Source: an uncultured Ignavibacteria bacterium (lineage in GTDB: Bacteria; Zixibacteria; MSB-5A5; JAABVY01). From it: 64,000 nt of DNA. The stretch is from the NCBI GenBank assembly GCA_964496505.1, contig CAZBZV010000008.1, positions 14,328 to 78,327 on the forward strand, read 5' to 3'. Positions 1,836 to 48,379 of the stretch are shown here, one piece after another. Both the position numbers and the translations under genes were made by a program. The notes below the pieces were generated by a model. That model worked only from the letters and a program-made list of their open reading frames with translations. It was not told the DNA's origin and made no database searches. How positions within the stretch are numbered: the stretch's first letter is position 1; each line of letters begins with the position of its first letter.

Positions 1836-3134
1836 ATGAGATGGCAGTCTGAATGGAAGCCGCTGGTTTTAATCAGCGGGGTGTTTCTTGCATTTTTCTA
1901 TATCCCCTTTAATGTAACGGGTATCGAAAATGCTATTATGGAAGCTTTGAAGCTGACCCAATGGTATGCCCGCGAGCATGTTATATTATGCCTGATACCG
2001 GCTTTTTATATCGCCGGGGCGATTGCCGTATTTATCAGCCAGGCCTCTGTAATAAAATATCTCGGTGCGAAGGCCAACAAGGTGCTTTCCTATGGAGTCG
2101 CCTCGGTTTCGGGTACGATTCTGGCTGTCTGTTCCTGCACGGTACTGCCGCTTTTTGCGGGGATTTACAAGATGGGCGCGGGGATTGGTCCCGCCACCGC
2201 CTTTCTTTATTCCGGCCCTGCCATAAATGTTCTGGCGATAATCCTGACCGCCAGAGTCCTGGGGCTTGGATTGGGGGTTGCGCGGGCGGTGGGCGCAATC
2301 GTTTTCAGTATTATAATCGGCCTGATTATGCATCTGATTTTCCGCAATGATGAAAAAGAGAAAGCAAGCGCTCAAATGGCTATGCCGGAATCGGATGACG
2401 GGCGTTCACTTTTGCAGAATGGGATATATTTTGCGGCCATGATTGCGATTCTTGTATTCGCCAACTGGGGCAGGCCGGATGAATCGGCGGGAATCTGGTA
2501 CACAATTTATTCGTATAAATGGATCATTACCGGTTTTGCAGCAATCTTGCTGGGCATTGTATTGGTTTTCTGGTTTAAAATGAAATGGTGGAAACTAATT
2601 CTGGTCGCAATTCCCGCTATTGTTCTGGCCATCGCAGTGCCGCATGAGCCAATGATCGCTTTTGCCGCGGCAGTAATCGGATTTTCGATCGTTACCGCAA
2701 CATCAAAAGGCGAATCTTCGGAATGGTTTGATCAGACCTGGGGCTTCACCAAGCAGATTCTGCCGCTTCTATTTGCCGGTGTCCTGATCGCGGGGCTGCT
2801 TCTGGGTCGTCCCGGTCATGAAGGATTGATACCCTCGGAATGGATCAGCAGTTCGGTTGGAGGAAATTCGTTGTGGGCAAACCTTTTCGCATCAGTGGTG
2901 GGGGCTTTTATGTATTTCGCGACTTTGACCGAGGTGCCGATTTTGCAGGGATTAATCGGCAACGGCATGGGCAAAGGACCGTCGCTGGCGCTTCTGCTGG
3001 CCGGGCCTGCCCTGTCACTGCCAAACATGCTTGTCATACGGTCTGTGATTGGAACGAAGAAGACATTTGTTTTTGTATTGCTGGTGGTAGTTATGGCGAC
3101 TATCTCCGGCCTGATATATGTTTCGTTTTTCTAA
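1836..3134 (+). CDS. COG0701/DUF318-type permease (ArsP-like) with a CSC motif
   Basis: 432-aa polytopic membrane protein. AVCSCTVLPLFAG and the repeated SGPAINV / AGPALSLPN half-repeats are typical of the permease family that pairs with the small redox-active disulfide protein. Organoarsenical efflux (ArsP) is a possibility, not shown. Confidence 0.7.
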   Translation: MRWQSEWKPLVLISGVFLAFFYIPFNVTGIENAIMEALKLTQWYAREHVILCLIPAFYIAGAIAVFISQASVIKYLGAKANKVLSYGVASVSGTILAVCSCTVLPLFAGIYKMGAGIGPATAFLYSGPAINVLAIILTARVLGLGLGVARAVGAIVFSIIIGLIMHLIFRNDEKEKASAQMAMPESDDGRSLLQNGIYFAAMIAILVFANWGRPDESAGIWYTIYSYKWIITGFAAILLGIVLVFWFKMKWWKLILVAIPAIVLAIAVPHEPMIAFAAAVIGFSIVTATSKGESSEWFDQTWGFTKQILPLLFAGVLIAGLLLGRPGHEGLIPSEWISSSVGGNSLWANLFASVVGAFMYFATLTEVPILQGLIGNGMGKGPSLALLLAGPALSLPNMLVIRSVIGTKKTFVFVLLVVVMATISGLIYVSFF

Positions 3135-3172
3135 TAAAAACCGATTTTGGATGTACTTAAGGAGCGTTTTAA

Positions 3173-4408
3173 ATGAAGAATGATTCAGGCCCCTCGACAA
3201 ACTGGAAGGCATATGCAATAATCAGCCTGCTTGGAATTCTTGCAATTACGCTTGCGGCGGCAATTTTCAGGCTCTGGGTGTTGACCGCAATCCCGATAGG
3301 ATTTTTATTTGGCTTCTTTCTTCAAAAAGGTGATTTGTGCGGATCATCGGCATTCAGCGAGATTATAATGATGCGCGATTCGGGCAAGATTGTCGGTTTA
3401 TGGGTGCTGATTGTAATTGCCATGCTTGGAATCGGCTGCCTGGATTTGCTGGGATGGATCAAGTTGAATCCAAAACCCCTTGTATATCTAAATTACATAA
3501 TAGGCGGCGTTATTTTTGGTTCAGGCATGGTGCTGGCGGGCGGATGTATTAGCGGCTGTCTGTACAAAGGCGCGGCCGGCAATCTCAACTCGATCGCGGC
3601 GCTTCTAAGTATCCCTGTGGGAGTTATGCTGGTGGAGTTTGGTCCTCTCAACGGTGCACATCTTTGGATGAAAAAGCATATCATATCGCTGGCAAGCGGA
3701 GAGAAAGTGAGCCTGTATGCGCTCACCGGACTGCCATTCTGGGCTCTTGCATTGATTTTCGCAGGCATCACCTTTGCATTTGTTATCGCTCTTAAGCGAC
3801 GAAAACCAAAAGCAGATCATTCAATCAAAAAGGATGCTGCGCCTTTGCTCAAGCGGGCAATGACCAGGTCCTGGAGGCCCTGGGTGGCCGGCGTTGCTAT
3901 CGGACTTTTGATGGTCCCGGCTTATCTGTCATCAGCGGCCAGCGGACGAAATTATCCGCTTGGTGTTACTCATGGGGTTATGCAGGCAGAGCTGCTCCTG
4001 ATAGATAACGGTTTTAACCATGTTTATTCAAAAAAACCGGCTGAAGCAGCCAGTATAAAAAACGCAATCATTCCCCCATCAGAGAAAAAAGTGAGCGGAA
4101 AAAAAGTGGTCTGGTGGCTGGTGGCGGGTGTATTGAGCCTGATGATTGGTTCATGGGTCTCGGCAAGGATGGCCGGACGGGCCAGGCTTCTTCCAAAACC
4201 ACCTGACGAAATCCTGATCGCCCTGCTGGGAGGATTGATGATCGGAGCGGGCGCGGCTATTGCGGGAGGATGTGTGGTCGGAAATATTATGTCCGGCTGG
4301 GCTTTAATGAGCGTTGGCACTATTATATTTGGAGTGGTGGTCGTATTAACAAATTGGGCAACAACATATATCTATATGATGGGCGGGCAGCGAGTTCGAA
4401 AGACTTAA
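3173..4408 (+). CDS. YeeE/YedE-family (sulfur/selenium-compound transport) membrane protein with two fused domains
   Basis: 411 aa. Each half carries the GDLCGSSAF / AGGCISGCLYKG and AGGCVVGNIMSG cysteine-loop motifs characteristic of YeeE/YedE. Confidence 0.8.
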   Translation: MKNDSGPSTNWKAYAIISLLGILAITLAAAIFRLWVLTAIPIGFLFGFFLQKGDLCGSSAFSEIIMMRDSGKIVGLWVLIVIAMLGIGCLDLLGWIKLNPKPLVYLNYIIGGVIFGSGMVLAGGCISGCLYKGAAGNLNSIAALLSIPVGVMLVEFGPLNGAHLWMKKHIISLASGEKVSLYALTGLPFWALALIFAGITFAFVIALKRRKPKADHSIKKDAAPLLKRAMTRSWRPWVAGVAIGLLMVPAYLSSAASGRNYPLGVTHGVMQAELLLIDNGFNHVYSKKPAEAASIKNAIIPPSEKKVSGKKVVWWLVAGVLSLMIGSWVSARMAGRARLLPKPPDEILIALLGGLMIGAGAAIAGGCVVGNIMSGWALMSVGTIIFGVVVVLTNWATTYIYMMGGQRVRKT

Positions 4409-4437
4409 CAGATTGTTTTATGATAGGAGTGAAGCAT

Positions 4438-4671
4438 ATGAAGAAAATAGAAATACTGGGCACCGGCTGCCCTAAATGCCAGAAAATGGCCGAGTGTGCC
4501 GAGGAAGCCGCCAAAGAGCTTGGGATCGAATATGAGCTGAAAAAGATTACCGATATCGCTGAAATCACAAGCCACGGTGTTATGATGACTCCGGCTTTGG
4601 TGGTTGACGGCAAGGTAAAAATCGTGGGAAAAGTGCCCTCGAAAGATGAGCTTAAAAATCTAATTGCATAG
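4438..4671 (+). CDS. small redox-active disulfide protein (thioredoxin fold, CPKC), cytoplasmic
   Basis: MKKIEILGTGCPKCQ...VMMTPALVVDGKVK is the classic TM0996/MTH895-type mini-thioredoxin. I chose the ATG at 4438, preceded by GGAG at 4426-4429. The tracked ORF start at 4270 overlaps yeeE and is rejected. Confidence 0.85.
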   Translation: MKKIEILGTGCPKCQKMAECAEEAAKELGIEYELKKITDIAEITSHGVMMTPALVVDGKVKIVGKVPSKDELKNLIA

Positions 4672-4695
4672 TTCTCGAATGATGGGAGGATCATA

Positions 4696-5211
4696 ATGTT
4701 TAAAAGAGCGACACTCATACTAATTCTTTTACTTTTTGCGTTTTCCGGACTCGTCGTGGGCCAATCCTCGGAAAAGCAGGAATCACAAAAATTGCCGCTT
4801 AAACCTTTCACCTCAGAAGAGAAGGTTACCGATTCGACCGCGGCCGCAAAGACTGAGGCAAAGGAAAAAATCGAAAGCAAGGTTATTGCCTACTACTTCC
4901 ACAGCACCCGCCGCTGTGCGACCTGCAAAAAGCTGGAGGAGTATGCCAGGGAGGCGATTGAGGGCGGCTTCGAGGATGAGCTGGAAAAAGGCACACTGGA
5001 ATTAAAGGCGGTTAATACCGACGAGGATGAAAACAAGCATTATATCGACGATTACAAGCTCTATACCAAGGCTCTTATATTATCCAGAGTGAAAGAAGGT
5101 GAAGAGGTTGAATGGGTCAATCTCGACAAGATATGGAAGCTGGTTGGCAACGAGGACAAATATAAAGCTTATGTCACAAGCGAGCTTGAGGAGTTCCTGG
5201 GAGAGAATTGA
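4696..5211 (+). CDS. exported thioredoxin-like protein with CATC motif (ArsF-like family)
   Basis: Signal peptide MFKRATLILILLLFAFSGLVVGQ, a low-complexity linker, then YYFHSTRRCATCKKLEEY...DDYKLYTKALIL. I recall this pattern as the 'ArsF family' thioredoxin-like protein. Not verified by search. Confidence 0.6.
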   Translation: MFKRATLILILLLFAFSGLVVGQSSEKQESQKLPLKPFTSEEKVTDSTAAAKTEAKEKIESKVIAYYFHSTRRCATCKKLEEYAREAIEGGFEDELEKGTLELKAVNTDEDENKHYIDDYKLYTKALILSRVKEGEEVEWVNLDKIWKLVGNEDKYKAYVTSELEEFLGEN

Positions 5212-5906
5212 TGGAGAGCATTCTTATCGGGATCGGTTCGGCGTTTTGGCTGGGGGTGTTAACCTCGGTCAGCCCCTGCCCTCTTGCGACAAATATCGCG
5301 GCCATATCATATATCGGAAAGCGTGTATCCAATCCGCGAATGGTCGTGCTTTCGGGTATGTTATATATGCTCGGAAGAGTGGTTGCATACCTGGGGCTGG
5401 GAATTCTGATTGTAGCGAGCGCATTGTCGATTCCGGAAATCGCCTGGTTTTTGCAGAAAAATATGAACCAGTTTCTGGGGCCGATACTGGTGATTGCAGG
5501 CATTTTACTTCTGGGCTTTATCAAATTCAGTCTTCCCGGCGGAGGTATCAGCGAGAAAATGCAAAAGCGGGTCGAGCGTTTGGGAATCTGGGGCGCGGGC
5601 CTTCTGGGTATCCTGTTTGCGCTTTCCTTCTGCCCGGTGTCGGCGGCGCTTTTCTTCGGCAGCCTGATTCCCCTCTCGGTTAAACACGGATCAAGTTATA
5701 TGCTGCCGTCGGTTTATGGCATCGGTACCGCTCTGCCGGTGATCGTTTTTGCATTTATAATCGGTTTTGGAACTCATTATCTCAGCCAGGTGTTTAACAA
5801 AATCACAAAGTTTGAGCTGTGGGCGCGGAAAATTACCGGGATAATTTTTATAGCCGTCGGGATTTATTATATACTCATATATTACTTTGGGATAACCCTG
5901 TTTTAG
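5208..5906 (+). CDS. CcdA/DsbD-family membrane thiol:disulfide electron transporter (ArsG-like)
   Basis: 232 aa with about 6 TM segments. One Cys sits in TM1 (SVSPCPLATN) and one in TM4 (LSFCPVSAALF), as in CcdA. The ATG overlaps the upstream stop (TGATGG). Confidence 0.75.
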   Translation: MMESILIGIGSAFWLGVLTSVSPCPLATNIAAISYIGKRVSNPRMVVLSGMLYMLGRVVAYLGLGILIVASALSIPEIAWFLQKNMNQFLGPILVIAGILLLGFIKFSLPGGGISEKMQKRVERLGIWGAGLLGILFALSFCPVSAALFFGSLIPLSVKHGSSYMLPSVYGIGTALPVIVFAFIIGFGTHYLSQVFNKITKFELWARKITGIIFIAVGIYYILIYYFGITLF

Positions 5907-6015
5907 ATTTTGGGATTTTCGCCAATATGTAATATACTTCGAATGGAAAATTGCAAATCCTAAATGGCCGCTATCCCGGCCATTAAAACACGGCCGTATT
6001 ACGGAGATGATGTGA

Positions 6016-7206
6016 ATGAGTAAGAAAAAACGCAAACAGAGCAAGAACACGAAAAAAACGGCTTCGCAGAAAAAGGAGCCGGAAATATATCAAAGGAACC
6101 ATAACCGTATTTATGTTATCCTGGCAGGAATAGTAGTTATAGTTGCCGCCGCGGTTATATTATTCAGCATGGATTTCGCAGAACTCGGAGGCAATAATGC
6201 CGGCGCAACTCTGGATCAATCCTCAGAGGCCGAATCCAATGCCAACCAGCCTCCCTCTGTCAAGGTAGGCGGTCCCTCAATATATCTCCCCGAGAAATCG
6301 TATGACTTTGACACAATTCCCGAGGGTGCGAAGGTGTCTCATACCTTTATAGTAAAAAATACAGGCACCGAGCCCCTGGAGCTAATCCGTGCCAAGGGAT
6401 CGTGAGGATGCACGGCGGCCGTACTGACAGAGACGGCCATTCCCCCGGGCGGGGAAGGTAAAATTGAGGTAACCTTTGATAGCAAAAAGAGACGTGGAAA
6501 ATCTATTAAGCATATAAGTGTCGAGTCAAACGATCCGGTCAGCCCGAAAGAATCTCTGACTATCTCTGCCTATGTCGAGGCAGAATTCGGCTTCGAAACC
6601 AATTCGCTTAACTTGGGCAGGATTCGTAAGGGCGAGTCTGTCAGCAGGACAGCAACCTTGCTTATGAAAGATACCTCCAAACGCGATTTGCTTGAAATCG
6701 GCTCAAAGTCTTCTCAAATTGATGTACAGATTGTTGATAACGATGATGAAAAGGATGGGGGAATTGAGGTTGAAGTAACCGTTAATGCAGACGATTCTTT
6801 CGGCAGGCTTGATGAGCGTGTTAGCGCCAAATTGACTGATGGTTCTCATCCCGAGTCTATCCTGCGGATTATTGCAAATATCATCGGGAATGTGGAGGTG
6901 GATCCGCGATCAATACACTTTATAATCGACACGGCACAGGCAGAGCCGGATGTTCCAATTCGAGAAGTAAAGGTCTTCAGCAACAGCGAGAACGCAGGGT
7001 TTGGGCTTTTGAGTGTTGAGGACACAAAAGACCTTTTGACGATTAATGCTGATACGATTATCGCCGGCAAGCAATACCGAATTTTGACAAGGCCGAATGA
7101 AAAGGCCATGAAACTAAATCGAATAACCTCAGGCTCAGTCAGGATAAAAACGGATGATCCAGAACAACCTGAAGTAAGCTTCAGTTATAGGATTGTTCTG
7201 CGCTGA
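6016..7206 (+). CDS. membrane-anchored DUF1573-domain protein with an in-frame UGA at codon 130 (candidate selenocysteine); read as one 396-aa product
   Basis: ORFs 6016-6405 and 6613-7206 are in the same frame, and there is no stop in the 207 nt between them. The translation across the TGA (6403-6405) reads FIVKNTGTEPLELIRAKGS-[TGA]-GCTAAVLTETAIPPGGEGKIEVTFD. That is the DUF1573 '...SCGCT...PG..G.I.V.F' core with the first Cys replaced by TGA. The N-terminus is a Lys-rich tail plus one TM helix. Confidence 0.55.
6403..6438 (+). promoter_or_regulatory. UGA codon plus SECIS-like stem-loop
   Basis: UGA at 6403-6405, then an 11-nt spacer. GGCCGU (6417-6422) pairs with ACGGCC (6433-6438). Inner C-G and U-A pairs are possible, which would leave a bulged A and a G-initiated apical loop GACAG. 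Confidence 0.45.
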
Positions 7207-7224
7207 AAATGACATGGAGGATAT

Positions 7225-7671
7225 TTGATAGATTCGAATGACAGGCTGAAAATCCTATTTCTTTGTACCGGCAATTCCTGCCGCAGCCAGATGGCCGAGG
7301 GATGGGCACGGCATCTTAAGGGCGATAAGATCGATCCTTACTCCGCCGGCATAGAAACTCATGGCTTGAACCAGAATGCGGTCAAAGTCATGGCCGAGGC
7401 AGGCGTGGATATATCGGGGCATAAATCCAAACATGTGCAGGATTTGCTGGATATCGGCTTTGACTATGTTGTTACGGTCTGCGATCATGCCAGCGAAAAT
7501 TGCCCGATTTTTCCGGGCAAGGCGAAAGTTATTCACAGGGGCTTCGATGATCCTCCCAGGCTGGCCAAAGACGCAAAGAGCGAAGAGGAAGCATTGGGAC
7601 ATTACAGAAGAGTGCGGGATGAGATCAGGGATTTTGTGAAAACACTGCCACAGGCATTGGGGCAAAAATGA
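7225..7671 (+). CDS. arsC: arsenate reductase, thioredoxin-coupled LMW-PTPase type
   Basis: [19 protein letters not shown]-loop plus [12 protein letters not shown], the Cys10/Cys82/Cys89 arrangement of pI258-type ArsC. The tracked start at 7225 is TTG, so the exact start is uncertain. Confidence 0.85.
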
Positions 7672-8741
7672 AAAAGCGCTTATCATTTCTGGATAGATTT
7701 CTGACATTGTGGATTTTCCTGGCTATGGCGGTCGGCGTAGGTGCAGGGTATTTCTTCCCAAACGTTGCCGGTTTCTGGAATAAGTTCAGCGTGGGCACTA
7801 CCAATACTCCGATTGCAATCGGGCTTATACTTATGATGTATCCGCCTCTAGCGAAAGTACGCTATGAGGAACTGGGCAAGGTCTTCCGCAATTTCAAAAT
7901 ACTTGGCCTGAGCCTGGTGCAGAACTGGGCTATCGGTCCGGTCTTGATGTTCGTGCTGGCGATTGTTTTCCTTCACAACTACCCGGAATATATGGTAGGC
8001 CTGATTATGATCGGTCTGGCACGATGTATCGCCATGGTTATCGTATGGAATGACCTGGCCGAGGGTGACCCGGAGTATGCCGCCGGACTGGTGGCATTTA
8101 ACTCTGTCTTTCAGGTGATATTCTATTCGGTGTTTGCATGGATTTTTGTGACCAAGCTGCCTCCCCTGTTTGGATTATCGGGAGCGGTGGTGGATATTAC
8201 TATCGGCGAAATCGCCAAAAGTGTTTTTATATATCTGGGGATACCGTTTATAGCCGGAATTATTACCCGTTTCTCGTTAATCGCTCTCAAGAGCAAGGAA
8301 TGGTATCATTCTGAATTCATACCGCGTATCAGCCCGATAACATTGATTGCGCTGCTGTTTACGATCATAGTCATGTTCTCGCTCAAGGGCGAATATATTG
8401 TCAAGATACCGCTTGATGTTGTCCGTATCGCGATTCCGCTGTTGATTTATTTCGTGTTCATGTTCCTGATCAGCTTTTTTCTCAGCAAGAAGGCGGGGGC
8501 CAATTACAGCCAGTCGGTAACTTTGAGCTTTACAGCCGCCTCGAACAATTTCGAGCTGGCGATCGCGGTGGCGGTTGGGGTCTTCGGTATCAATTCGGGT
8601 GTGGCTTTTGCGGCGGTAATTGGCCCGCTGGTGGAAGTACCGGTCTTGATAGCGCTTGTCAATGTCGCTTTCTGGATCAGGCGAAAGTTTTACGGCGATG
8701 AGCTGCAGATGTCGCCAAGGCAGGTGTATGAACGGGGATAA
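7668..8741 (+). CDS. acr3: ACR3-family arsenite efflux transporter
   Basis: 357 aa. [13 protein letters not shown]...[22 protein letters not shown] and the overall 10-TM pattern are typical of ACR3. The ATG overlaps the arsC stop (ATGA). Confidence 0.9.
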
Positions 8742-13625: not shown

Positions 13626-15014
13626 TCAGTATTTGAATTCGATTACGATACGATGATTGTTGGCGCGGCCTTCGGCGGTCGTGTTGGTATCGATGAAATC
13701 AGTGGCGCCCATACCCACAGCCTCGATTCTCTCCCCGCCGATTCTTCTTTCCACCAGATAACTTTTGATTTTCATGGCCTCGAGCTCGGCCTTCTGCTGG
13801 CTTTCTTCCTGGCCGAGAGTGTTATCGGTATAAGCTTTGACCACAACATCAACCTCCGGGAAGTCACGCAGCGCCTGGGCTATATTATCAAGTGTACGCA
13901 GTGACCTGAAGTCAATTCCGCGGCCGGATTCCGAGAAGCGCACGTTCAGGGTGCGGGAATGAAAAATCGAATCCATAATGGCACAGCCAGACTCATCAAC
14001 CGGATATCCCGGCGGAGTGTCGGCACAGGCATCAATACTGTCGGGTACGTTATCGCCGTCGCTGTCCGGAGGACAGCCGGTTGAATCGAGCGTAATCTCG
14101 GCATATATATCGGGACAGCGGTCACGGAAGTCGGGCAGGCCGTCGCCGTCAGTGTCGACCGGACAGCCGTACTCATCAACCATACCCCGTCCCTCAGGCG
14201 GCGTATCCGGGCATAGATCGATAGCATTGGGAACGCCATCCAAATCGGTGTCATCTTCCAGAAGTTCCTCAGCAGCCGCACCAGTTTCCTCCAGGTCATC
14301 ATAGGAGATACTGACCTCTCCCTTCTCCAGTCCGAAGTATACGGAGACTCCGAATTTAAGATCTCCATAGGCTCGTGAGCGGAAATCCTGAACACTATCG
14401 GCAAAATCGGCTCCAAGGCCGGTCAGGTAATTCAAAGAAGCGTCCGCATGAATGGAGATATTATCACGTACAAACCACTCGTATCCAAGGCTTCCGGTCA
14501 GCAGAAACTCTGTGGCGCTGTAATCGACGGGATCACCCTCACCGTCGGGCACCTGAATAGGATCGTCGGTAGCGACGAATTTGATTGACCAGAATGAAAG
14601 CCCCATGCCTGCCGAAATATACGGCACAAAGCTGCTGTTCCCGATTAAATGATATTTCAGTTTGGCCTTAAGTGTGTTAATTTGCCAGTAGCGGTCGGCG
14701 TCTTCCTTGCCGATTTTGTATATGGAATGCGAGACCGTATCGTTATAAACCTTGCCGAATTCGTATTCGCCCACGATCATAACCTCTTCATTGATACCGA
14801 TGCCCGCGCCAATGGCAAATGCGGGTGAGATCACCCATGGCTGCCAGGTTGGGTTCAATGCGGGCTGACGTGCCCCGGCGTTAATATAAAGCGAGAGCTT
14901 TTTCTCCAGGCCGATCTGTGCCTGGAGAGCGGATGTACCAAGGATCAGGCAGGCCAGAAATATCGTTATAATAAATGTCTTATTTTTCTTATTCATGCTC
15001 TTCATAAGCGTCAA
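13626..15014 (-). CDS. OmpA-family outer-membrane protein: N-terminal beta-barrel, thrombospondin type-3 (DxDxDG) repeats, OmpA C-terminal domain
   Basis: Signal peptide, then alternating beta-strand region. TDLDGVPNAIDLCPDTP, DTDGDGLPDFRDRCPD and DSDGDNVPDSIDACADTP are TSP3 repeats. The C-terminus reads ...GRANNHRIVIEFKY. Confidence 0.8.
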   Translation of the reverse strand: MTLMKSMNKKNKTFIITIFLACLILGTSALQAQIGLEKKLSLYINAGARQPALNPTWQPWVISPAFAIGAGIGINEEVMIVGEYEFGKVYNDTVSHSIYKIGKEDADRYWQINTLKAKLKYHLIGNSSFVPYISAGMGLSFWSIKFVATDDPIQVPDGEGDPVDYSATEFLLTGSLGYEWFVRDNISIHADASLNYLTGLGADFADSVQDFRSRAYGDLKFGVSVYFGLEKGEVSISYDDLEETGAAAEELLEDDTDLDGVPNAIDLCPDTPPEGRGMVDEYGCPVDTDGDGLPDFRDRCPDIYAEITLDSTGCPPDSDGDNVPDSIDACADTPPGYPVDESGCAIMDSIFHSRTLNVRFSESGRGIDFRSLRTLDNIAQALRDFPEVDVVVKAYTDNTLGQEESQQKAELEAMKIKSYLVERRIGGERIEAVGMGATDFIDTNTTAEGRANNHRIVIEFKY

Positions 15015-39094: not shown

Positions 39095-42000
39095 ATGTGG
39101 GTAACGAATGTAAATAACATCATTGGGGGTCAGAAGACCATGTCTAACAGCATCAATTCATACCGCAGGGGATTACCACAGGAGTATGGCCCGCAAAGAA
39201 CGATTTATAGAATTATTCTTTGTCTGGTTTTGGCAATTGCGATATTGATTCCTGCCCGTCTGGGGGCAGAATATAAAACCGAGTTCGCCGATACGGTTGT
39301 TCTCAGTTCCGTAGATCTACCCTATAATGTCCCCCAGAGCAATCTGCTGATTTTGACCAACGGCAACCTATACACCGGCGGAACCGCTATCAATGTCGGC
39401 GACCGTAACGATATCATGATCGACGGCGGCGGTGACACGATTTTCTTTGGAAGCGGGGAAGGCGATTTCGTGCACGGCGTAAGGATGTCCTACAGCCCGG
39501 AACGGATTCAGATAAAAAATATAACGCTTATTCATGATGTACCCGATGCCACTCTGGCTGAGGACTGCTCACCGATTCATCTTTACGGCGATGACAGTGT
39601 CTGGGTCAAAAATGTAAATATGGTTTCCCGTGGGGTGGAGGGAAACTGTATCGATGCTACTACCAAATATGGAAACGGTATTTCGAACATATGGGTGGAG
39701 GACTGCGAATGCGATAACCGCGCTCACAGCTACTACAGCCGTAACGCCGATCCGGCGGCGGCATTCAGAGTATGTGCTGATATTTCCACACTTGGTCCCG
39801 GAGAGTATACCGGCAAATTCGAGAATGTCACGGTTACCAGAACGCCTCATTCAGCAATCTACGCGGTCGGCGGCAGCGATAATCGTCCGGTAATGATAAT
39901 TCACGACTGCAGCCTGACAGTTGATGCGCACAACGATATGTATGACACTACCAATGCAACCGTTTTTCATTCTTCCGGCGATCCGTTTGCAATAAGCGTA
40001 TTCAGGCTCGGCGCCGGATCTCAGATATATAACAATGTCATCCGCTCGGGAAATCAGTATGAGGGAGGACAGGGCATGATGATTCAGGGTGCGCAGGGCA
40101 CGGCTTCTAATCCTGTTGAAATATATAATAATGATGTGCAGGTTCATTGCGGCCCAACTCAATCTGACCTGCGTTACGGCGGGGATGGCAAGTCGATTGG
40201 TTTTTATCTTCGCTGGCCCGAGGGCGATTCCAAAATGTCGAACTGCTATGTGAAGATCAGGGATAATATTTTCAAGACCTATGCCGACGCCCTGACCGAT
40301 CTGGATAACGGCGGCACTGCACATACCGGGGGCTCTGCGCAGGGCATCCGTATCCATGCCGACAGCGGATTTCATAACTGTGAGCTCGTCAATAACCGTG
40401 TTTTCGCTTTGAGGTCGGATTCGCTGGTTGATACGGGTTATGTGGAAACGGTTGCGGCTATGATCGCCAAAGTCGATACGAATCGAACCGACAGCTATGG
40501 GCTGACTCACATGCAGGATGTTCACGATAACGTATTCAAAGGAAATTATTATTATGCGCTGACTTCACCGCTGTATATCGGCAGTGTTGCGCAGCATCTG
40601 CTGGGCGGCGGAAATCTGATTCTGTATGCTGACACCTTGCACTGCCCCGAACCGGCAGGCGGAAATACATCGGTGGAATTTCCACAGTACGGCACATTCA
40701 GGTACAGCTCCACCGGAAGCAGGCTTATCGACTATACATATCTCGGCTATTCTAATGATGATGATATAAAGTGGGGTAATATCAATACCGACTGCAACGG
40801 CCTCGGCAAAGACCTGCGCTACGACAGAATCGCCACGATCAAAGTTAAAGACGATCAGGGAAATGATTTGAGCGGAGCAGCGGTAACAATAGTAAACAAC
40901 TATGGACAACTGGTTGCATCGGGAAGCACTGACGCATTCGGCGAGTTCACAGATACGGTCACATACAAGGCCAGGCATTACAACAGTCCTTATGATGACG
41001 GTTCATGCTACTGGGAGGATTCGCTTCTTTTCAATGATTTCACGATCAAGGCCAAGTACGGCGGGGACAGCAGTATCACGACCCTCGCAATCAATGCCGA
41101 GACGGCATTTCCATTTAATATGTCGCTTAACGGGGGCAATCCGGCCAATAATCCGCCCTCAACTCCGTTACTGGCCAGCCCTTCAAACGGGGCAACTCTT
41201 GATGATTTAACACCGGTATTGACAGCTAACAATTCATCCGATTCCGACGGCGATGCATTGACATACAGTTTCCAGGTGTCATCAAATTCGAGCTTCACAG
41301 CTATCGTTGCACAGACAAGCGGTCTTACCGAAGGCGGAGGTTCAACTACGTCATGGACAGTCTCGCCGAATCTTTCCAATGGCAATAGCTATTACTGGAG
41401 AGTGAGGACTTATGACGGTGAGAGTTATTCGGGATGGTCGTCGTCAAGAATATTCAGCGTCAATCTTCCGAACAATGTACCCTCCTCACCTGTGCTTGCA
41501 AGTCCGGCTGACGATGCGACCGTGACAAGTCTAACTCCGGAACTGGTTGCCAATAACAGCAGCGATGCTGACGGAGATGAACTGGTTTACGATTTCCGTG
41601 TATCGGCCAATGCCAGCTTCACGAATATAGTGGCTCAGGTATCGGGCCTGTCCGAGGGGGGCGGTTCAACGACATCATGGACAATAACGCCTGAACTTTC
41701 AGACGGCACGACCTACTACTGGAGAGGACGTGCCTACGATGGTCACGATTATTCCGGGTGGTCGTCAGCCAGATCCTTTACCATCAACCTGCCCGACAAT
41801 CCGCCTTCAACACCGGTGCTTGCCGATCCATCTGACGGCGCAGTGCTAACATCAACTGCACCCGTTTTGACAACGGGCAATTCCACCGATCCGGATGGTG
41901 ACGGTTTAACATATAGTTTTCAGGTGGCATTGAACTCGGATTTCTCATCTATTGAGGCACAGGTAAGTAACCTTTCGGAGGGCTTGGGCGACAATACTTC

Positions 42001-44305
42001 CTGGACAGTTTCTCCAGAGCTGTCGGATGGAAACGCTTACCACTGGCGAGTGAGGGCTTATGATGGAAACAACTACTCAGATTGGTCGGATTCCAGGTCA
42101 TTTTCTATCGAAATTCCCAATAACAGTCCCAGCGTCCCGGTTTTGGCCTCGCCCGATGACAGCGCTTCGGTGGAAATCCTGAGGCCAGTTTTGACACTTA
42201 ATAATTCAAATGATCCCGAGGGAGATGATCTGGTATACGACATCCAGATCTCAACCTCGCAGACATTTATCATACCTCTGGCAGCGGAGTATGGTATAAC
42301 TGAGGGCTCAGGAGAAACAACCTCGTGGACTGTTCCCAGCGATCTTTCCGACGGCATCCGCTATTTCTGGAGAGCGCGTGCATACGATGGCGACTCTTAC
42401 TCGGGCTGGTCGGCAGTCTGGACGTTCGTAGTTGAATTGCCCAATAACGCTCCCACAACACCGGTTCTGGCAACGCCTGCCAACGGCAGCAGCGTTAACA
42501 CCCCCACCCCGGTACTGGTGAGTAATAATTCCGCCGATGTCGACGGTGATGATTTGACATACGATTTCCAGGTATCGTCAAATTCCACTTTCAGTTCAAT
42601 TTCGGCCGAGGTAACGGGCCTGTCCCAGGGCTCCGAATCGACAACCGGATGGACCGTGGACACCGATCTTACGGACGGCAACACATATTTCTGGCGTGTT
42701 CGGGCATCGGACGGAGAGGCTTATTCGGGTTGGTCACAGGTAAGATCATTCACAATCGACCTGCCCAATAATGCACCCACAGCGCCCATTCTGGCAAGCC
42801 CGGGTAATGGCGAGACGGTAACGAGTCTATCGCCTGAGTTGACTGTCAATAATTCATCCGATGATGACAATGATGCTCTTACATATCATTTCCAGGTTTC
42901 GAGTAATTCGAGCTTTACGGCTATAGTCGCCCAGCAGTCCGGATTAGCAGAGGGCTCCGGAGAGACCACATCCTGGACGGTAAACAGTTCTCTGAGTAAC
43001 CAGACGAATTTCTGGTGGCGGGTACGTGCCTATGATGGCGAAGATTATTCAGCATATTCGCAGACTTCGGTATTCTATGTAGACTATACCGAGCCGAATG
43101 ATCCGCCTGAACCTCCGGAATCGGATCAGCCGCCAGCGGGCGATTCGGTTGATAGTCCCAATCCGATACTTGTTGTAGCAAATTCGGTCGATCCTGATGG
43201 CGACGATTTGTCTTACCATTTCGAGGTCTGGAACGATCAGCAGTCAGAGCTGATAAAGGCTTCGCCGCCGGTCCCCGAAGAATCGGGTTCCACGACTTCA
43301 TGGGAAGTCGATACCGCACTCGAGGACGGACAGCAGTATCACTGGCGTGCACGTTCATTCGACGGCAGCGAATATGCCGATTGGACATCATGGTCAAATT
43401 TCTATGTCGAAATGTCGCCGCCTAATGGACCGCCAACCACACCCACAATCGTTTTGCCAAACGATGGCGATACGCTTATCGGATCGACACATACACTGGT
43501 AATCGGCAACAGCAACGATCCGGATGGAGATGAGATTACCTATGAATTTCTGATCTGCTCTGACAGCGGCATGTCGCAGACGGTTGAACATGTAGTGAAC
43601 GTCGTTGAAGGCACTACAAACACAACTTTCATTACCTCGGCTACTCTGGAACAGGGAAACACATACTGCTGGCACGCACGTGCATGCGACGGACAGGATT
43701 CATCGGCATGGTCGGAGACTCGCTCCTTCGTGCACCTCGATTTCACAGCCAGCGCTGAGGATATTCCTACTCCCGAGTATCCGCTGGAGGGCGAGGTGGT
43801 ACATAATCTGAGACCGACATTCAGGATTCAAACTGATGAGAGCGATGTGGGTGTCAATTTCTATTTCGAGGTATCCGATAATCCGGAATTCGCAAATCCG
43901 ATATCTTCGGGGCCGGTAGAGGGTGAACGAAATAAAACGTCCTGGCGGCCGGATCAGAATTTGGTACCGAATTTTACATATTACTGGAGAGCAAAAGCAG
44001 AGAAATCGGGATGGTGCGAGGTAACCTCATTTTCAACAAAGGGGAATGTTCATGTCTCGCCTAATCCATTCCGCCCCGACAAGGACGGTGAGGAGGTTGT
44101 ATTCAGAAATCTGCCGCAAACATCTAATATCACGATAACAACAATCAGCGGAGATATTGTATACCGTATGCAGGAGGCAGAGGGGCCGGAGATCATTTGG
44201 AACGGCAGAAATTATAATAATGAGCCGGTGGCAAGCGGAGTATATCTGTACTTCGTAAGCAGTCCGGACAGTTCCGAATCGGGTAAAATTGCTGTGATTA
44301 GATAA
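39095..44305 (+). CDS. giant secreted surface protein: right-handed beta-helix, CarboxypepD_reg-like domain, 9 Fn3/Ig-like repeats and a T9SS-type C-terminal sorting domain
   Basis: 1736-aa ORF with an N-terminal hydrophobic anchor/signal (IILCLVLAIAILIPARLGA). The beta-helix region has repeated NN-x-I/V turns. IKVKDDQGNDLSGAAVTIVNNYGQLVASGSTDAFGEF is the CarboxypepD_reg-like part. The C-terminus reads VSPNPFRP...ITITTISGDIVY...ASGVYLYFV...KIAVIR. An alternative start at Met16 is possible. Confidence 0.8.
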   Translation: MWVTNVNNIIGGQKTMSNSINSYRRGLPQEYGPQRTIYRIILCLVLAIAILIPARLGAEYKTEFADTVVLSSVDLPYNVPQSNLLILTNGNLYTGGTAINVGDRNDIMIDGGGDTIFFGSGEGDFVHGVRMSYSPERIQIKNITLIHDVPDATLAEDCSPIHLYGDDSVWVKNVNMVSRGVEGNCIDATTKYGNGISNIWVEDCECDNRAHSYYSRNADPAAAFRVCADISTLGPGEYTGKFENVTVTRTPHSAIYAVGGSDNRPVMIIHDCSLTVDAHNDMYDTTNATVFHSSGDPFAISVFRLGAGSQIYNNVIRSGNQYEGGQGMMIQGAQGTASNPVEIYNNDVQVHCGPTQSDLRYGGDGKSIGFYLRWPEGDSKMSNCYVKIRDNIFKTYADALTDLDNGGTAHTGGSAQGIRIHADSGFHNCELVNNRVFALRSDSLVDTGYVETVAAMIAKVDTNRTDSYGLTHMQDVHDNVFKGNYYYALTSPLYIGSVAQHLLGGGNLILYADTLHCPEPAGGNTSVEFPQYGTFRYSSTGSRLIDYTYLGYSNDDDIKWGNINTDCNGLGKDLRYDRIATIKVKDDQGNDLSGAAVTIVNNYGQLVASGSTDAFGEFTDTVTYKARHYNSPYDDGSCYWEDSLLFNDFTIKAKYGGDSSITTLAINAETAFPFNMSLNGGNPANNPPSTPLLASPSNGATLDDLTPVLTANNSSDSDGDALTYSFQVSSNSSFTAIVAQTSGLTEGGGSTTSWTVSPNLSNGNSYYWRVRTYDGESYSGWSSSRIFSVNLPNNVPSSPVLASPADDATVTSLTPELVANNSSDADGDELVYDFRVSANASFTNIVAQVSGLSEGGGSTTSWTITPELSDGTTYYWRGRAYDGHDYSGWSSARSFTINLPDNPPSTPVLADPSDGAVLTSTAPVLTTGNSTDPDGDGLTYSFQVALNSDFSSIEAQVSNLSEGLGDNTSWTVSPELSDGNAYHWRVRAYDGNNYSDWSDSRSFSIEIPNNSPSVPVLASPDDSASVEILRPVLTLNNSNDPEGDDLVYDIQISTSQTFIIPLAAEYGITEGSGETTSWTVPSDLSDGIRYFWRARAYDGDSYSGWSAVWTFVVELPNNAPTTPVLATPANGSSVNTPTPVLVSNNSADVDGDDLTYDFQVSSNSTFSSISAEVTGLSQGSESTTGWTVDTDLTDGNTYFWRVRASDGEAYSGWSQVRSFTIDLPNNAPTAPILASPGNGETVTSLSPELTVNNSSDDDNDALTYHFQVSSNSSFTAIVAQQSGLAEGSGETTSWTVNSSLSNQTNFWWRVRAYDGEDYSAYSQTSVFYVDYTEPNDPPEPPESDQPPAGDSVDSPNPILVVANSVDPDGDDLSYHFEVWNDQQSELIKASPPVPEESGSTTSWEVDTALEDGQQYHWRARSFDGSEYADWTSWSNFYVEMSPPNGPPTTPTIVLPNDGDTLIGSTHTLVIGNSNDPDGDEITYEFLICSDSGMSQTVEHVVNVVEGTTNTTFITSATLEQGNTYCWHARACDGQDSSAWSETRSFVHLDFTASAEDIPTPEYPLEGEVVHNLRPTFRIQTDESDVGVNFYFEVSDNPEFANPISSGPVEGERNKTSWRPDQNLVPNFTYYWRAKAEKSGWCEVTSFSTKGNVHVSPNPFRPDKDGEEVVFRNLPQTSNITITTISGDIVYRMQEAEGPEIIWNGRNYNNEPVASGVYLYFVSSPDSSESGKIAVIR
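41147..44044 (+). repeat. nine in-frame tandem coding repeats (about 108 aa each) inside the giant gene
   Basis: Unit starts are at 41147, 41471, 41795, 42119, 42443, 42767, 43097, 43424 and 43745. The first five units are exactly 324 nt. Consensus: NNxPSxPVLASPxxGxxVxxLTPxLxxNNSxDxDGDxLTYxFQVSxNSxFxxIxAQxSGLxEGxGxTTSWTVxxxLSDGxxYYWRVRAYDGxxYSGWSxxRSFxIxLP. Confidence 0.9.
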
Positions 44306-44324
44306 TTCGTTTGGGTTGTGCGGA

Positions 44325-44359
44325 AAAGACGTCCGGTTGAAACCGGGCGTCTTTTTTTA
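44325..44359 (+). terminator. rho-independent terminator after the giant gene
   Basis: GACGTCCGGTT-gaa-AACCGGGCGTC (one mismatch) followed by TTTTTTT. Confidence 0.75.
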
Positions 44360-44435
44360 TCTTTTCTGTTTTATTTTTCTTCTATTTTTCTCATATTTAG
44401 GAAAATCTAAATACGCACCATGAGGAGAAACGGAA

Positions 44436-46445
44436 ATGAAGACAATTATGCCAGCCGTATTCGTAATATTGCTAATGATTCCATTTTGCCTGACCGCACA
44501 GAACCTCCCTCCGGGCGAAAACCCTCCACCGGATGTGTTCGACCGTATCGTAAATGCCGGTGAGGCCGGAAAATACGAAAACGCACCTTACGTAATCGTG
44601 ATGGATTCCAGTGTTAACCGTGTCAACGACCTGGGAATATCATATATAGATAATTATATGCTGTTCAAAGCCCTCACTGATGCTGGCTGTAAACAACTTG
44701 CGGTGATTACCAGAGGATATGAACCCTTAAGCAGCATAATCGAATTCCGCGAGATCAATATTATCAGGGACACCCAGAAGATACCGGTTGATCTGGAAAA
44801 TGTGAAAGACCTGCCTGCTCCGCAGTCGGGGATTTACTGGGGTGACAGGATAAAGATAATCCAACTGCCTCGTCTCGAGATCAATGACGGTATTGAAATA
44901 GTAACATTCAGAAAGGGTTATTCCTATGCCCTTTTGGATTCGGACGATATCCCGCCGGAGGATGAAAAGTATATACCGCCTATGCCGGGCGAATATTTTG
45001 ATATAGTCCTTTTCGAGGCCAATATGCCGATTGTGGAAAAAAAGTACGTTCTCAAAATTCCTGCTGAAAAACGGATTCATTCACAGATATATAATGGTCC
45101 CATGTACTCGGCCACGACATATAACCAGGACACAACCACATATAGCTGGTGGATCAAGGATATGCCTGCTCAGAAATCCGAACGATCCACTCCGGATGCC
45201 TCGGATATCACTACCAAAGTCGTGCTCGCCACGGTTGAAAGCTGGGAGGCCAAAAGCAGGTGGTTTTTCGATGTTAATCAGGGACAGTTCGATGTTACCC
45301 CGGCTATCCAGGCCAAGGTTGATGAGATTTTAAAGAGCGAGGGTGTGTTCAACGGCACCGAAGAGGAGAAAGCATTCGCGCTTCTTCACTGGGTAGCACA
45401 GAACATCCGTTACAGCGGCCAGACAATGGGTGAAGGCGAGGGCTTTACCCTGCATTCGGGCGAGATGATTTTCGAGCAGAGAAGCGGTGTCTGCAAGGAT
45501 ATTGCCGGGATGCTGGTTACCATGATGCGGGCGGCCGGGTTGGACTCGTACGCGGCCATGACCATGGCCGGAAGCCGTATCGAACAGGTTCCGGCCGATC
45601 AATTCAACCATTGTGTGGTAGCGCTCAAAAAAGAGGATGGCAGCTTTGTGATGTACGATCCCACCTGGGTGCCGTTTAACAGAACAATTTGGAGCCTTTT
45701 CGAGGCCGAACAGCATTTCCTGGTGGGAACGCCTGAGGGCGAGGGATTGGATAGCATCTACTACAGCCCTCCAGAGGAATCGCCCATGCGGATTACCAAC
45801 AACGCCAGAATTCTCGATGACGGCACGCTTGAGGGAGAAATCAGATTCTCCGCGGGCGGTTCAATGGATTATTATCTGCGGGGATTAATCGGATGGTATC
45901 CCAGATCGGAAATCGAAAGTAATCTAGAAGATATGTTCAGCAAAATCAGCAACAGGATTGAGATTGTCGGCTATGAGCATGGTGATGTACTGGATTTTAA
46001 TCAGGATATGTGGTGGAATATCGAATACCGGATACCCGAATATGCGATGAAGTTCGGAGATGGTATGGAGTTCCAGAGCCCGATGCTTATGCTTGCAACC
46101 AACAACCGCTTTCTTTTCAGAATCGGCGGCGATCCCTGGCCGGAAAAGCGCGAATCGGATTTGTTTTTGTATACCACCCAGCTTCTGGATGCAAGCGAGA
46201 CAATAAGACTGCCGGGCGATTACAAAGTTGTCAATGCAAAAGAGAGTGACAAGGTTGATGAGACTTATGCCTATTATCATTCGAATACAGAAATGGATGG
46301 AAAAGAATTTATAATCAAGACCAGAGGAGAAATAAAGAGGCGGCAGATACCGCCCGAAGGGTATGGCGGATTTTATAAGATGACAAAGCAAGCACACGAT
46401 TTCGCTGAGACAATTTTCCGGGCTGAGAAAGGGGGTGCAAAATGA
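44436..46445 (+). CDS. exported DUF3857-like plus transglutaminase-like cysteine-protease-fold protein (Cys-His-Asp intact)
   Basis: Signal peptide. The transglutaminase core RSGVCKDIAGMLVTMMRAAGL ... FNHCVVAL ... VMYDPTW carries the catalytic C, H and D. Confidence 0.7.
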   Translation: MKTIMPAVFVILLMIPFCLTAQNLPPGENPPPDVFDRIVNAGEAGKYENAPYVIVMDSSVNRVNDLGISYIDNYMLFKALTDAGCKQLAVITRGYEPLSSIIEFREINIIRDTQKIPVDLENVKDLPAPQSGIYWGDRIKIIQLPRLEINDGIEIVTFRKGYSYALLDSDDIPPEDEKYIPPMPGEYFDIVLFEANMPIVEKKYVLKIPAEKRIHSQIYNGPMYSATTYNQDTTTYSWWIKDMPAQKSERSTPDASDITTKVVLATVESWEAKSRWFFDVNQGQFDVTPAIQAKVDEILKSEGVFNGTEEEKAFALLHWVAQNIRYSGQTMGEGEGFTLHSGEMIFEQRSGVCKDIAGMLVTMMRAAGLDSYAAMTMAGSRIEQVPADQFNHCVVALKKEDGSFVMYDPTWVPFNRTIWSLFEAEQHFLVGTPEGEGLDSIYYSPPEESPMRITNNARILDDGTLEGEIRFSAGGSMDYYLRGLIGWYPRSEIESNLEDMFSKISNRIEIVGYEHGDVLDFNQDMWWNIEYRIPEYAMKFGDGMEFQSPMLMLATNNRFLFRIGGDPWPEKRESDLFLYTTQLLDASETIRLPGDYKVVNAKESDKVDETYAYYHSNTEMDGKEFIIKTRGEIKRRQIPPEGYGGFYKMTKQAHDFAETIFRAEKGGAK

Positions 46446-48379
46446 AGCGGACATTGATTTTTATGACGGTTACTCTTGCATTCGCATTCCTTTTCCAGAA
46501 TGCAATTGCACAGGAATCAATCGACGGAAGATATAATATTGCCGAGCTCATGGATTCGGCACGCGCTAACTTCGATCTTGAACAGCAGGATGGTGTCTTT
46601 CTTCTGGATAGCAAGGATGTAAAATGGCTGGAGGATGGCAGGCTGTCGACTACAGTGCATCGGATTATCTGGATCGCAACCGACTTTGCGGTAGATCAAT
46701 ACGGCGACCATCGTATCCCCTATGATCATGAACGCCAGGATTTCGAGGTTATCACGGTGCGCACATGGATGGACAATCAGTGGTGGGTGACCGGAGAGAC
46801 GGGAATAGTCCCAACTCTGCCGCATGCGCTTAAGAAGGCCTACGATTATACCAATATGCGTGAGATGATGCTTCTGCATAACGGTATTGAGATACCGTGT
46901 ATACTGGAAGTGGCATACACGATCACGGATAAAGAACCATATAGGAAAAATATTGACGGCATGTGGGTATTTCAGAAAGAATTGCCGGTTGTTGTATCGT
47001 CGATAAGCATGAGAACACCTGAGATCAGGTCTCCAAAGTTTTATCGCCCCCTAAGCCTTCCTTCGCCAAATATTGAGGAAAACGGTGGGCTGAAAACATA
47101 TAGTCATACCTCAGGACCATATGAGGCTATTCCCGATCCATGGAGTCAGCATGATATTTTCTCTGCTCCTCATATTGTCTGGTCAACCTGGGATAGCTGG
47201 AATTCGCTTGGGGAGTATTACGACAGCCTTTTCCAGCAGGTTATGTCCATAGATGATTATCTACAAACAACAGTAGACTCTCTTGCGGATGCCTCTATTA
47301 ACAGGCAAAAATGTGCAGTTGAGATTGCCAGTTTTGTTTCTAAGAAAACCGGCTTTATATCCTATCCATATCGATATTGGATGTATTTCCCACGCGAGAC
47401 TGTGAGGATTTATGAAAGCGCTTACGGCCATGCTCTGGATCGGGCGTTACTGGCATCGGCGCTTTTCGAATTAGCTGATCTTGAACCGAAGATGATTCTG
47501 CGCGGAGAGAATCTACAAGATGCCTACCTGGAAATTCCCTGTTTTGACTATTTTGATGCGCCCTTGATAAAAATCGCAGCCGACGGCAGCGAAATGTATT
47601 ATAATCCTGTCAACGGCATGATTTCAAAGAGCATTCAGCCCTATTTCGGTCAAACAGGATTTTATCTTACAGATAATCGGGGCAGACCGATTCAAAAATT
47701 CGAATTCCCTGAGGAAGAAAATCTTTTCACATTGAAGGTAGACCTTTCTTTGAATGATACTAAAGACACTTTAAACGGCATAGCCTATCTTGAAGCCGAA
47801 GGATGCTTCAGCCCATACAGCCAGATGGCCGGACTCGATAAAGAAGCGGAAAGCTACCTTGGCTCAATGATATCGGGGGTAATATCGGGGGCCAAGCTGA
47901 AAAGCCATAATCCCATTCACTTCAGGGAAGGTCGATGCAGAATGGGAATGAATTTCGAATTGAAGACTCCAAAGCCGGATGAATTCGGTCATATAAGGCT
48001 GGTGTTTGGCAGCCCGTCAGGGGGAATAGTGGATCAGCTCCCTGAAGGTGTAAGGCTTTTTGATAACGTAAAACAATCGAAAACAAATCTGCCGGGTACC
48101 CTTATTCAAACGGTCGAGATCAGTATCGATACCTCCGGTATGCAGGCAGTCTATTTTCCCGAATCAGAGAGCATACAAAATGAAGTCGGAAGCATCTCAA
48201 TTATATCAGAGAATGCCAAAGACAGAATCAGGATCATAAGAAGAATGCATCTTACAAACAATGAAGTCGCTTCTTCACAATGGCCTGATCTTCGCGAATT
48301 ATTATTGGAGGAAACAGATAGGAGGAATCAGATGTTTATATTCGAAGCAGGAGAGGAATCAGACAAAAAGGGAGATTGA
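46442..48379 (+). CDS. exported DUF3857/transglutaminase-like paralogue with the catalytic triad substituted
   Basis: Signal peptide and the same overall length and architecture. The core aligns as YGHALDRALLASALFELADL ... FDAPLIKI ... MYYNPV, so C, H and D are replaced by A, A and N in my by-eye alignment. The ATG overlaps the upstream stop (ATGA). Confidence 0.55.
   Translation: MKRTLIFMTVTLAFAFLFQNAIAQESIDGRYNIAELMDSARANFDLEQQDGVFLLDSKDVKWLEDGRLSTTVHRIIWIATDFAVDQYGDHRIPYDHERQDFEVITVRTWMDNQWWVTGETGIVPTLPHALKKAYDYTNMREMMLLHNGIEIPCILEVAYTITDKEPYRKNIDGMWVFQKELPVVVSSISMRTPEIRSPKFYRPLSLPSPNIEENGGLKTYSHTSGPYEAIPDPWSQHDIFSAPHIVWSTWDSWNSLGEYYDSLFQQVMSIDDYLQTTVDSLADASINRQKCAVEIASFVSKKTGFISYPYRYWMYFPRETVRIYESAYGHALDRALLASALFELADLEPKMILRGENLQDAYLEIPCFDYFDAPLIKIAADGSEMYYNPVNGMISKSIQPYFGQTGFYLTDNRGRPIQKFEFPEEENLFTLKVDLSLNDTKDTLNGIAYLEAEGCFSPYSQMAGLDKEAESYLGSMISGVISGAKLKSHNPIHFREGRCRMGMNFELKTPKPDEFGHIRLVFGSPSGGIVDQLPEGVRLFDNVKQSKTNLPGTLIQTVEISIDTSGMQAVYFPESESIQNEVGSISIISENAKDRIRIIRRMHLTNNEVASSQWPDLRELLLEETDRRNQMFIFEAGEESDKKGD

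Follow-up and report, generated by a model that had tools for sequence, protein, structure and literature searches.

The 64,000-nucleotide stretch of DNA analysed here (the window: positions 14,328 to 78,327 of contig CAZBZV010000008.1, GenBank assembly GCA_964496505.1, from an uncultured Ignavibacteria bacterium placed by GTDB among the Zixibacteria) carries on its forward strand, at 6016-7206, a gene of 396 codons that is interrupted by a single in-frame TGA. We consider it very probable (roughly 0.9) that this is the complete gene of a membrane-anchored, extracytoplasmic immunoglobulin (Ig)-like protein of a known family, in which the UGA at 6403-6405 is decoded as selenocysteine (Sec) at codon 130 by way of an mRNA structure lying downstream of it. 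A first-pass annotation made from the sequence alone had proposed a selenoprotein at this site, and the proposal was sustained by Sec/Cys pairs among the homologues, purifying selection beyond the TGA, an RNA structure peculiar to the Sec forms, tRNA-Sec genes in carriers of the gene and a match to the curated model NF041425. The gene is a new member of the OS_HP2/DUF1573 family of selenoproteins with a UGC motif.

The gene starts with the ATG at 6016, behind a GGAG at 6003-6006, and ends with the TGA at 7204-7206. The track of open reading frames (ORFs) divides it into 6016-6405 and 6613-7206, and, as the first-pass annotation had it, both pieces share one frame in which the TGA at 6403-6405 is the sole internal stop, with 266 sense codons 3' of it. 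The translation across this codon (...LELIRAKGS-[TGA]-GCTAAVLTETAIPPGGEGKIEVTFD, or, with a longer upstream reading, ...FIVKNTGTEPLELIRAKGS-[TGA]-GCTAAVLTETAIPPGGEGKIEVTFD...) agrees exactly with that given earlier. The predicted Sec130 is paired in the U-G-C motif with Cys132 (TGC at 6409-6411), the only cysteine of the protein. More genes of the window end in TGA than in any other stop codon (17 of the 37 confident ones, among them those with ATGA overlaps at 7668 and 16305); because it serves there as a normal stop, a genome-wide reassignment of TGA is excluded, as had already been argued. When the whole window was searched for further genes split by a TGA, no candidate lay in a real gene frame. 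A smaller search for Sec/Cys pairs in all the flanking sequences turned up mostly antisense and out-of-frame noise and no other credible site.

To place the TGA among homologues, we ran a profile search over one genome per species, which returned 80 homologous loci. The aligned codon is TGA in L001-L022, L025, L027, L033 (two copies), L064 and L069, which belong to several phyla, and TGC or TGT in the other approximately 48. An all-against-all check of this column counted 30 TGA and 57 Cys codons with no other residue, so that codon 130 corresponds to the leading Cys of CGC in all 57 Cys homologues; both the alignment and the Sec/Cys pairs were checks proposed by the first-pass annotation. The second Cys of the motif is encoded by TGC or TGT throughout the aligned homologues. 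The peptide around the TGA (...PL.LI.AKGS-*-GCTAAVLT..IPPGGEG.IEV) is kept at protein identities of 30-90%, and tblastn matches cover residues 1-396 in about 20 loci. The closest proteins in a database of 5.8 billion are fragments of 260-267 amino acids that begin a few codons 3' of the UGA, as expected when gene callers treat it as a stop, and the more remote full-length homologues carry GSCGCTAA at this site. Compared with the orthologue in the nearest relative, a Zixibacteria metagenome-assembled genome (MAG; L001) whose copy is ~89-90% identical and whose other ars genes share 88-99% amino-acid identity with those of the window, the ratio of nonsynonymous to synonymous substitution rates (dN/dS) is 0.17 on the 5' side of the TGA and 0.13 on the 3' side, against 1.7-1.8 in out-of-frame controls. 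The region 3' of the TGA is, by this comparison of coding sequences, under purifying selection.

The RNA downstream of the UGA folds into two adjacent hairpins. Hairpin 1 (6417-6438) begins after a spacer of 11 nt (6406-6416) and is closed by the pairing of GGCCGU (6417-6422) with ACGGCC (6433-6438), with a core of 6419-6423 paired to 6432-6436. Its minimum free energy fold (-11.1 kcal/mol, z = -4.5; none of 200 shuffles folds as stably) contains the two inner pairs, bulged A and G-first GACAG loop, as well as the spacer and stem, that the first-pass annotation had described. What that annotation missed is the more strongly conserved hairpin directly 3' of it (6440-6456), formed by UUCCCC (6440-6445), a CGGGC loop (6446-6450) and GGGGAA (6451-6456) over the codons for I-P-P-G-G-E, which is the candidate core of the selenocysteine insertion sequence (SECIS). 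RNAalifold, applied to 26 aligned Sec-form sequences, recovered both helices in the consensus. Helix 1 covaries: four of its five core pairs are changed on both sides in some sequences (e.g., CG:9, GC:8, UA:2), and none of 500 shuffles and no slid register reaches this covariation. Helix 2 is 100% paired and almost invariant, with three wobble changes and one compensatory change, and its loop, CGGGY, is invariant in the Sec forms. There the I-P-P-G-G-E codons read ATT CCC CCG GGY GGG GAA in essentially all sequences; in Cys forms, the synonymous codons differ although the PPGG peptide is the same. The region of hairpin 1 folds on average at -9.7 kcal/mol in Sec forms versus -3.0 in Cys forms. 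For the +12 to +57 region, in which the two forms match in GC content (0.68 vs 0.66), the means are -18.4 and -12.0 kcal/mol (Mann-Whitney p = 2e-8). The downstream structure is thus specific to the TGA forms, and it is kept across at least six phyla.

The SECIS of Escherichia coli fdhF is marked by an 11-nt spacing, a bulge and a conserved G within the first two loop positions. Hairpin 1 of the window resembles it in its distance from the UGA, its bulged base and its G-first apical loop, but the loop G and the bulge vary among orthologues, L008 and L009 having no loop G at all. It also differs in being followed directly by the second hairpin, the most conserved element of the region, whose loop is 40 nt away from the UGA. 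The bSECISearch model covers 16-37 nt from the UGA, a range slightly exceeded by this loop. Hairpin 2 may be the true SelB-binding element despite this distance, and it is possible that the two hairpins form a single unit in which hairpin 1 acts as a spacer. On the proposed mechanism, for which the support is strong, both hairpins would direct Sec insertion, with SelB and Sec-tRNA(Sec) decoding the UGA at 6403-6405.

The capacity to make Sec can be judged from the carriers of orthologues. With ARAGORN we identified tRNA-Sec genes with the UCA anticodon at eight loci, each within ~5 kb of Sec-DUF1573: L033 (8439-8535), L085 (1479-1575), L106 (3231-3325), L110 (3529-3626), L112 (7843-7938), L163 (2490-2587), L178 (6118-6214) and L187 (4477-4573). 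The distances are about 1-5 kb and the loci come from two lineages, Myxococcales-type and CSSED10-310-type. This linkage of selC in some lineages is unexpected: for a single-copy gene, chance would give about 0.2 such cases, versus the eight observed. A tblastn search with E. coli SelA, SelB and SelD of ~1.7 Mb of sequence flanking the relatives' genes gave one match, in L014, and this proved to be LepA rather than a sel gene. We therefore infer the Sec capacity of the source organism from its orthologues.

A nucleotide signature built on hairpin 2 (UGA-GG-N-TGY-ACN-GC ... hairpin 2) was used to scan species-representative genomes and was present in at least 119 of them. The carriers among the matches listed include Zixibacteria, Ignavibacteria, Myxococcota, Thermodesulfobacteriota, Acidobacteriota, Gemmatimonadota, CSSED10-310 and Glassbacteria, and cultured ones such as Enhygromyxa salina (SWB005/SWB007) and Plesiocystis pacifica SIR-1. 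The signature is a sharp one, picking out at least 119 carriers in one scan, and the cultured carriers would allow a direct test for Sec. Two loci, L033 (4614 and 5838) and L153 (6398 and 7595), hold tandem duplicates of the Sec-form gene with the UGA and the hairpin-2 signature in each copy. In L021, a one-base insertion in the hairpin-1 region (6304-6370) shifts the frame (YSPGWGRK for IPPGGEGK) and leaves the hairpin-2 RNA motif intact; it is probably a long-read indel, not biology.

Once Cys is put at codon 130, the Pfam model DUF1573 (PF07610) matches residues 93-187 at 93.9 bits (cutoff 26.1), and, with U replaced by C, residues 91-188 match the NCBIfam model NF041425, "OS_HP2 family (seleno)protein", at 102 bits (cutoff 100). 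The metagenome of the Olavius algarvensis symbionts yielded the prediction of six new selenoprotein families, OS_HP2 among them (Zhang & Gladyshev 2007, PMC1976440); the Global Ocean Sampling study then entered pfam07610 with the motif UxC, counting 2 Sec forms against 354 Cys homologues (Zhang & Gladyshev 2008, PMC2398784), and reviews of 2022 and 2026 again include DUF1573/PF07610 with a UxC/UGC motif. The selenoprotein call is therefore correct but not new, the family having been predicted in 2007 and since curated by NCBI, and the novelty that the first-pass annotation saw in this selenoprotein context does not hold at the level of the family. The window protein shares with known members the domain, Sec as the first residue of U-x-C (UGC), plentiful Cys homologues and a stem-loop after the UGA. 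It differs in being Zixibacteria-like and in having an N-terminal transmembrane (TM) anchor, two added Ig-like domains and a location in an ars operon. The OS_HP2/DUF1573 literature that we examined mentions neither the ars context nor the two-hairpin RNA, and our literature search found no paper linking DUF1573 to arsenic. As a plain selenoprotein call the gene adds little; its placement in an ars operon is a modest new clue to the function of the family.

Several observations weigh against this reading. No selA, selB, selD or tRNA-Sec was found in the 64-kb window, where all ORFs of at least 150 amino acids were scanned with NCBIfam or Pfam for the three sel proteins. The SelB-binding element is ambiguous, given the unconserved loop G of hairpin 1 and the distance of the hairpin 2 loop. 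Rfam scans at gathering and permissive thresholds gave no SECIS match, a result of little weight because Rfam holds no fitting bacterial SECIS model. The NF041425 score barely exceeds its cutoff, and, going by the reviews of 2022 and 2026, selenium incorporation is without experimental proof for any member of the family. Lastly, the ars context is met repeatedly among Zixibacteria and Ignavibacteria, and carriers in the Myxococcota and Thermodesulfobacteriota are without ars linkage; an arsenic-specific function is weakened by its absence there.

The lack of sel genes in the window would also suit a recoding of the UGA by the SECIS/SelB route, or a readthrough, in which the inserted residue is not Sec (for instance Cys, by a tRNA-Sec-like tRNA(Cys), or Trp or Cys by near-cognate decoding), yielding a full-length but selenium-free protein. 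Natural systems that recode Sec codons to Cys have been reported, and Cys is accepted at this column in the 57 homologues. Yet were Cys the product, the retention of TGA over TGC would be hard to explain, an RNA structure specific to the Sec forms is kept in at least six phyla, and true tRNA-Sec genes with the UCA anticodon adjoin the gene in eight loci; we regard such an outcome as improbable. That standard gene callers split 6016-7206 might instead be taken to indicate a pseudogene or a true truncation, with a stop after codon 129 and the remainder decaying. A stop there would halve the DUF1573 domain, as the first-pass annotation pointed out, and this reading is effectively refuted by the selection acting 3' of the TGA (in-frame dN/dS 0.13 vs 1.7-1.8 out of frame) and by the same TGA in 30 loci of 30-90% protein identity with their downstream frames intact.

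Termination at the UGA followed by re-initiation, giving the two polypeptides that public annotations imply, draws on the ATG, GTG or TTG codons found a few codons past the UGA in many orthologues. These putative starts vary in both type and position (M, V or L at differing offsets), the C-terminal piece would be left with half of the first beta-sandwich and no signal peptide or TM anchor, and the Cys homologues P0011, P0014 and P0024 are single chains, making two products very improbable. An assembly or sequencing error would need a single base to turn a true TGC into TGA (or a true codon TGT to be misread), but the same TGA occurs in at least 30 independent assemblies made with differing technologies, and by the signature in at least 119 genomes, and the RNA structure that accompanies it is absent from the Cys forms; we give this explanation almost no credence. 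Decoding of the UGA as Sec is hence the reading that we retain below.

Public records of the orthologues are themselves fragments, split or shortened at the UGA (P0001-P0023). For example, L081 is divided into genes at 2656-3045 and 3064-3846, and a 260-residue GenBank protein from a Zixibacteria MAG, named 'DUF1573 domain-containing protein', is a shortened orthologue. Public MAG annotations thus still split such genes, and that of the window should be read as one selenoprotein of 396 amino acids.

The protein begins with a Lys/Arg-rich tail (residues 1-31), followed by a single TM helix predicted from hydropathy (residues 32-52; 6109-6171), a low-complexity linker and the DUF1573 Ig-like domain with the U-G-C turn (Pfam match at 6292-6576). 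By the positive-inside rule, the helix is expected to be an N-in/C-out anchor that leaves the bulk of the protein extracytoplasmic. For P0011, a full-length Cys orthologue, AlphaFold gives a model (predicted local distance difference test score, pLDDT, 89; predicted template modelling score, pTM, 0.73) with three beta-sandwich domains, from which two further Ig-like domains are predicted in the window protein, reaching to 7203. In this model the CGC occupies a short turn between strands 86-93 and 98-102 of the first domain, and the product of Sec decoding would accordingly carry its U-G-C selenol/thiol pair on a beta-turn, within the first of three Ig-like domains. Foldseek comparison with the PDB returned generic tandem Ig/ASH/cadherin-like folds only, for which reason the fold gives no functional clue, and a sequence search of solved structures gave a marginal match to 2qsv (E = 0.38) and no close one. 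The modelled fold would be that of a "binding or relay module" rather than an "enzyme".

The gene lies within a co-directional cluster on the forward strand in the order ArsR, ArsP, YeeE/TsuA-like, ArsE, ArsF, ArsG, selenoprotein, ArsC and ACR3, and neighbouring genes are -4 to 109 nt apart. The first gene encodes an ArsR repressor with the As(III)-binding motif CVC (1478-1801) and is followed by those for an ArsP-type permease with a CSC motif (1836-3134), a YeeE/TsuA-like transporter of sulfur compounds (3173-4408), a thioredoxin-like ArsE with a CPKC motif and no signal peptide (4438-4671), an ArsF-family protein that has a signal peptide and the motif CATC (4696-5211), and ArsG, a DsbD_2 family protein of six TM segments (5208-5906). 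The thioredoxin-coupled arsenate reductase ArsC (7225-7671) starts 18 nt past the selenoprotein gene, and its stop forms the ATGA overlap with the ACR3 arsenite efflux transporter (7668-8741; 455 bits). The cluster thus combines a regulator, an arsenate reductase and an arsenite efflux pump, closely spaced and read in one direction, as befits an ars operon, and no terminator-like site was found on the forward strand between ArsG and the selenoprotein gene.

The first-pass annotation had called the protein encoded just upstream a CcdA-type shuttle. The structural part of this description stands: ArsG belongs to the DsbD_2 family (PF13386, 62.5 bits) and its only two cysteines, the Pro-flanked C24 (in SPCP) and C142 (in FCP), lie in hydrophobic segments as in CcdA. 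The name does not, as the best specific model is NF040495, ArsG (297.9 bits), titled "aromatic aminobenzylarsenical efflux permease", and ArsG has been treated as an organoarsenical efflux permease (PMC9144182). Two minor points concern its neighbours. For ArsE, the ORF track places the start at 4270, which would make an overlap of 138 nt with the YeeE-like gene; translation really begins at the ATG at 4438, with a GGAG before it, giving a protein of 77 residues in agreement with the 77-residue gene called in L081. The YeeE/TsuA-like protein itself, which contains Cys only, has weak, sub-threshold similarity to the YedE selenium-metabolism model (67.8 bits vs a cutoff of 350), and the 2026 review counts the YeeE/TsuA-like (YedE) family among those with Sec-containing members.

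The gene neighbourhood and the motifs suggest an arsenical role for the U-G-C site: tentatively, and with odds well below even, the turn could serve, on the outer side of the membrane, as a selenol/thiol site for the binding or reduction of arsenicals. The As(III) sites of ArsR (CVC) and ArsP (CSC), both present in the window's own proteins, are likewise vicinal chalcogen pairs encoded in an ars operon, but theirs are cytoplasmic or intramembrane and contain sulfur only, whereas the predicted U-G-C site is extracytoplasmic and contains selenium. DsbD combines a periplasmic Ig-fold alpha domain, a TM beta domain and a thioredoxin-like gamma domain. The operon offers comparable parts in the CcdA-like, two-Cys ArsG, the thioredoxin-like or CxxC proteins ArsE and ArsF, and an Ig-like domain with a vicinal redox-type pair, and reducing power might run from the cytoplasmic ArsE through ArsG to the secreted CxxC of ArsF and on to the U-G-C site. 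The parts in the window are, however, separate genes, the Ig-like domain is DUF1573 rather than nDsbD with U-G-C rather than Cys103/Cys109, and both NCBIfam and published work (PMC9144182) class ArsG as an organoarsenical efflux permease. We consider it rather unlikely that the Sec-DUF1573 proteins of Zixibacteria and Ignavibacteria form the extracytoplasmic end of a split DsbD-like relay acting on arsenicals and, as a separate matter, that Sec insertion here uses an unusual two-hairpin SECIS, with the SelB determinants in the invariant distal hairpin and the covarying proximal one as spacer. Were the relay real, ArsG would be a reductant shuttle instead of, or besides, an efflux permease.

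Of the 22 closest Sec-form loci, 12 have ars genes beside them. Eight of the 12 (L003, L004, L005, L009, L010, L012, L020 and L021; ~3300-6000 in each) have a second arrangement, in which ArsR is followed by a secreted Cys-rich protein of ~250 amino acids, an FtsX/MacB-like permease, an ATP-binding cassette ATPase and Sec-DUF1573; the secreted protein has no Pfam or NCBIfam match. In a Bipolaricaulota MAG (L054, 4063-8062), a Cys-form DUF1573 lies between ArsE-ArsF-ArsG, which directly precede it, and a second ArsF-ArsG pair, a gene order that supports a putative functional link between DUF1573 and ArsEFG independent of Sec. Most carriers in the Myxococcota, Thermodesulfobacteriota and Acidobacteriota, along with several Zixibacteria, have unrelated neighbours, and a universal arsenic role was rejected on the evidence of the three former phyla. 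The ars context is real, recurrent and restricted to certain lineages, and the repeated embedding of the gene beside ArsE/F/G, ArsC and ACR3 makes an extracytoplasmic selenol/thiol site acting on arsenicals a testable hypothesis. Elsewhere in the window and unrelated to the selenoprotein, 39095-48379 encodes a 1736-residue protein with repeated Ig-like/fibronectin type III (FN3)-type domains, followed by two paralogous DUF3857/transglutaminase-like proteins.

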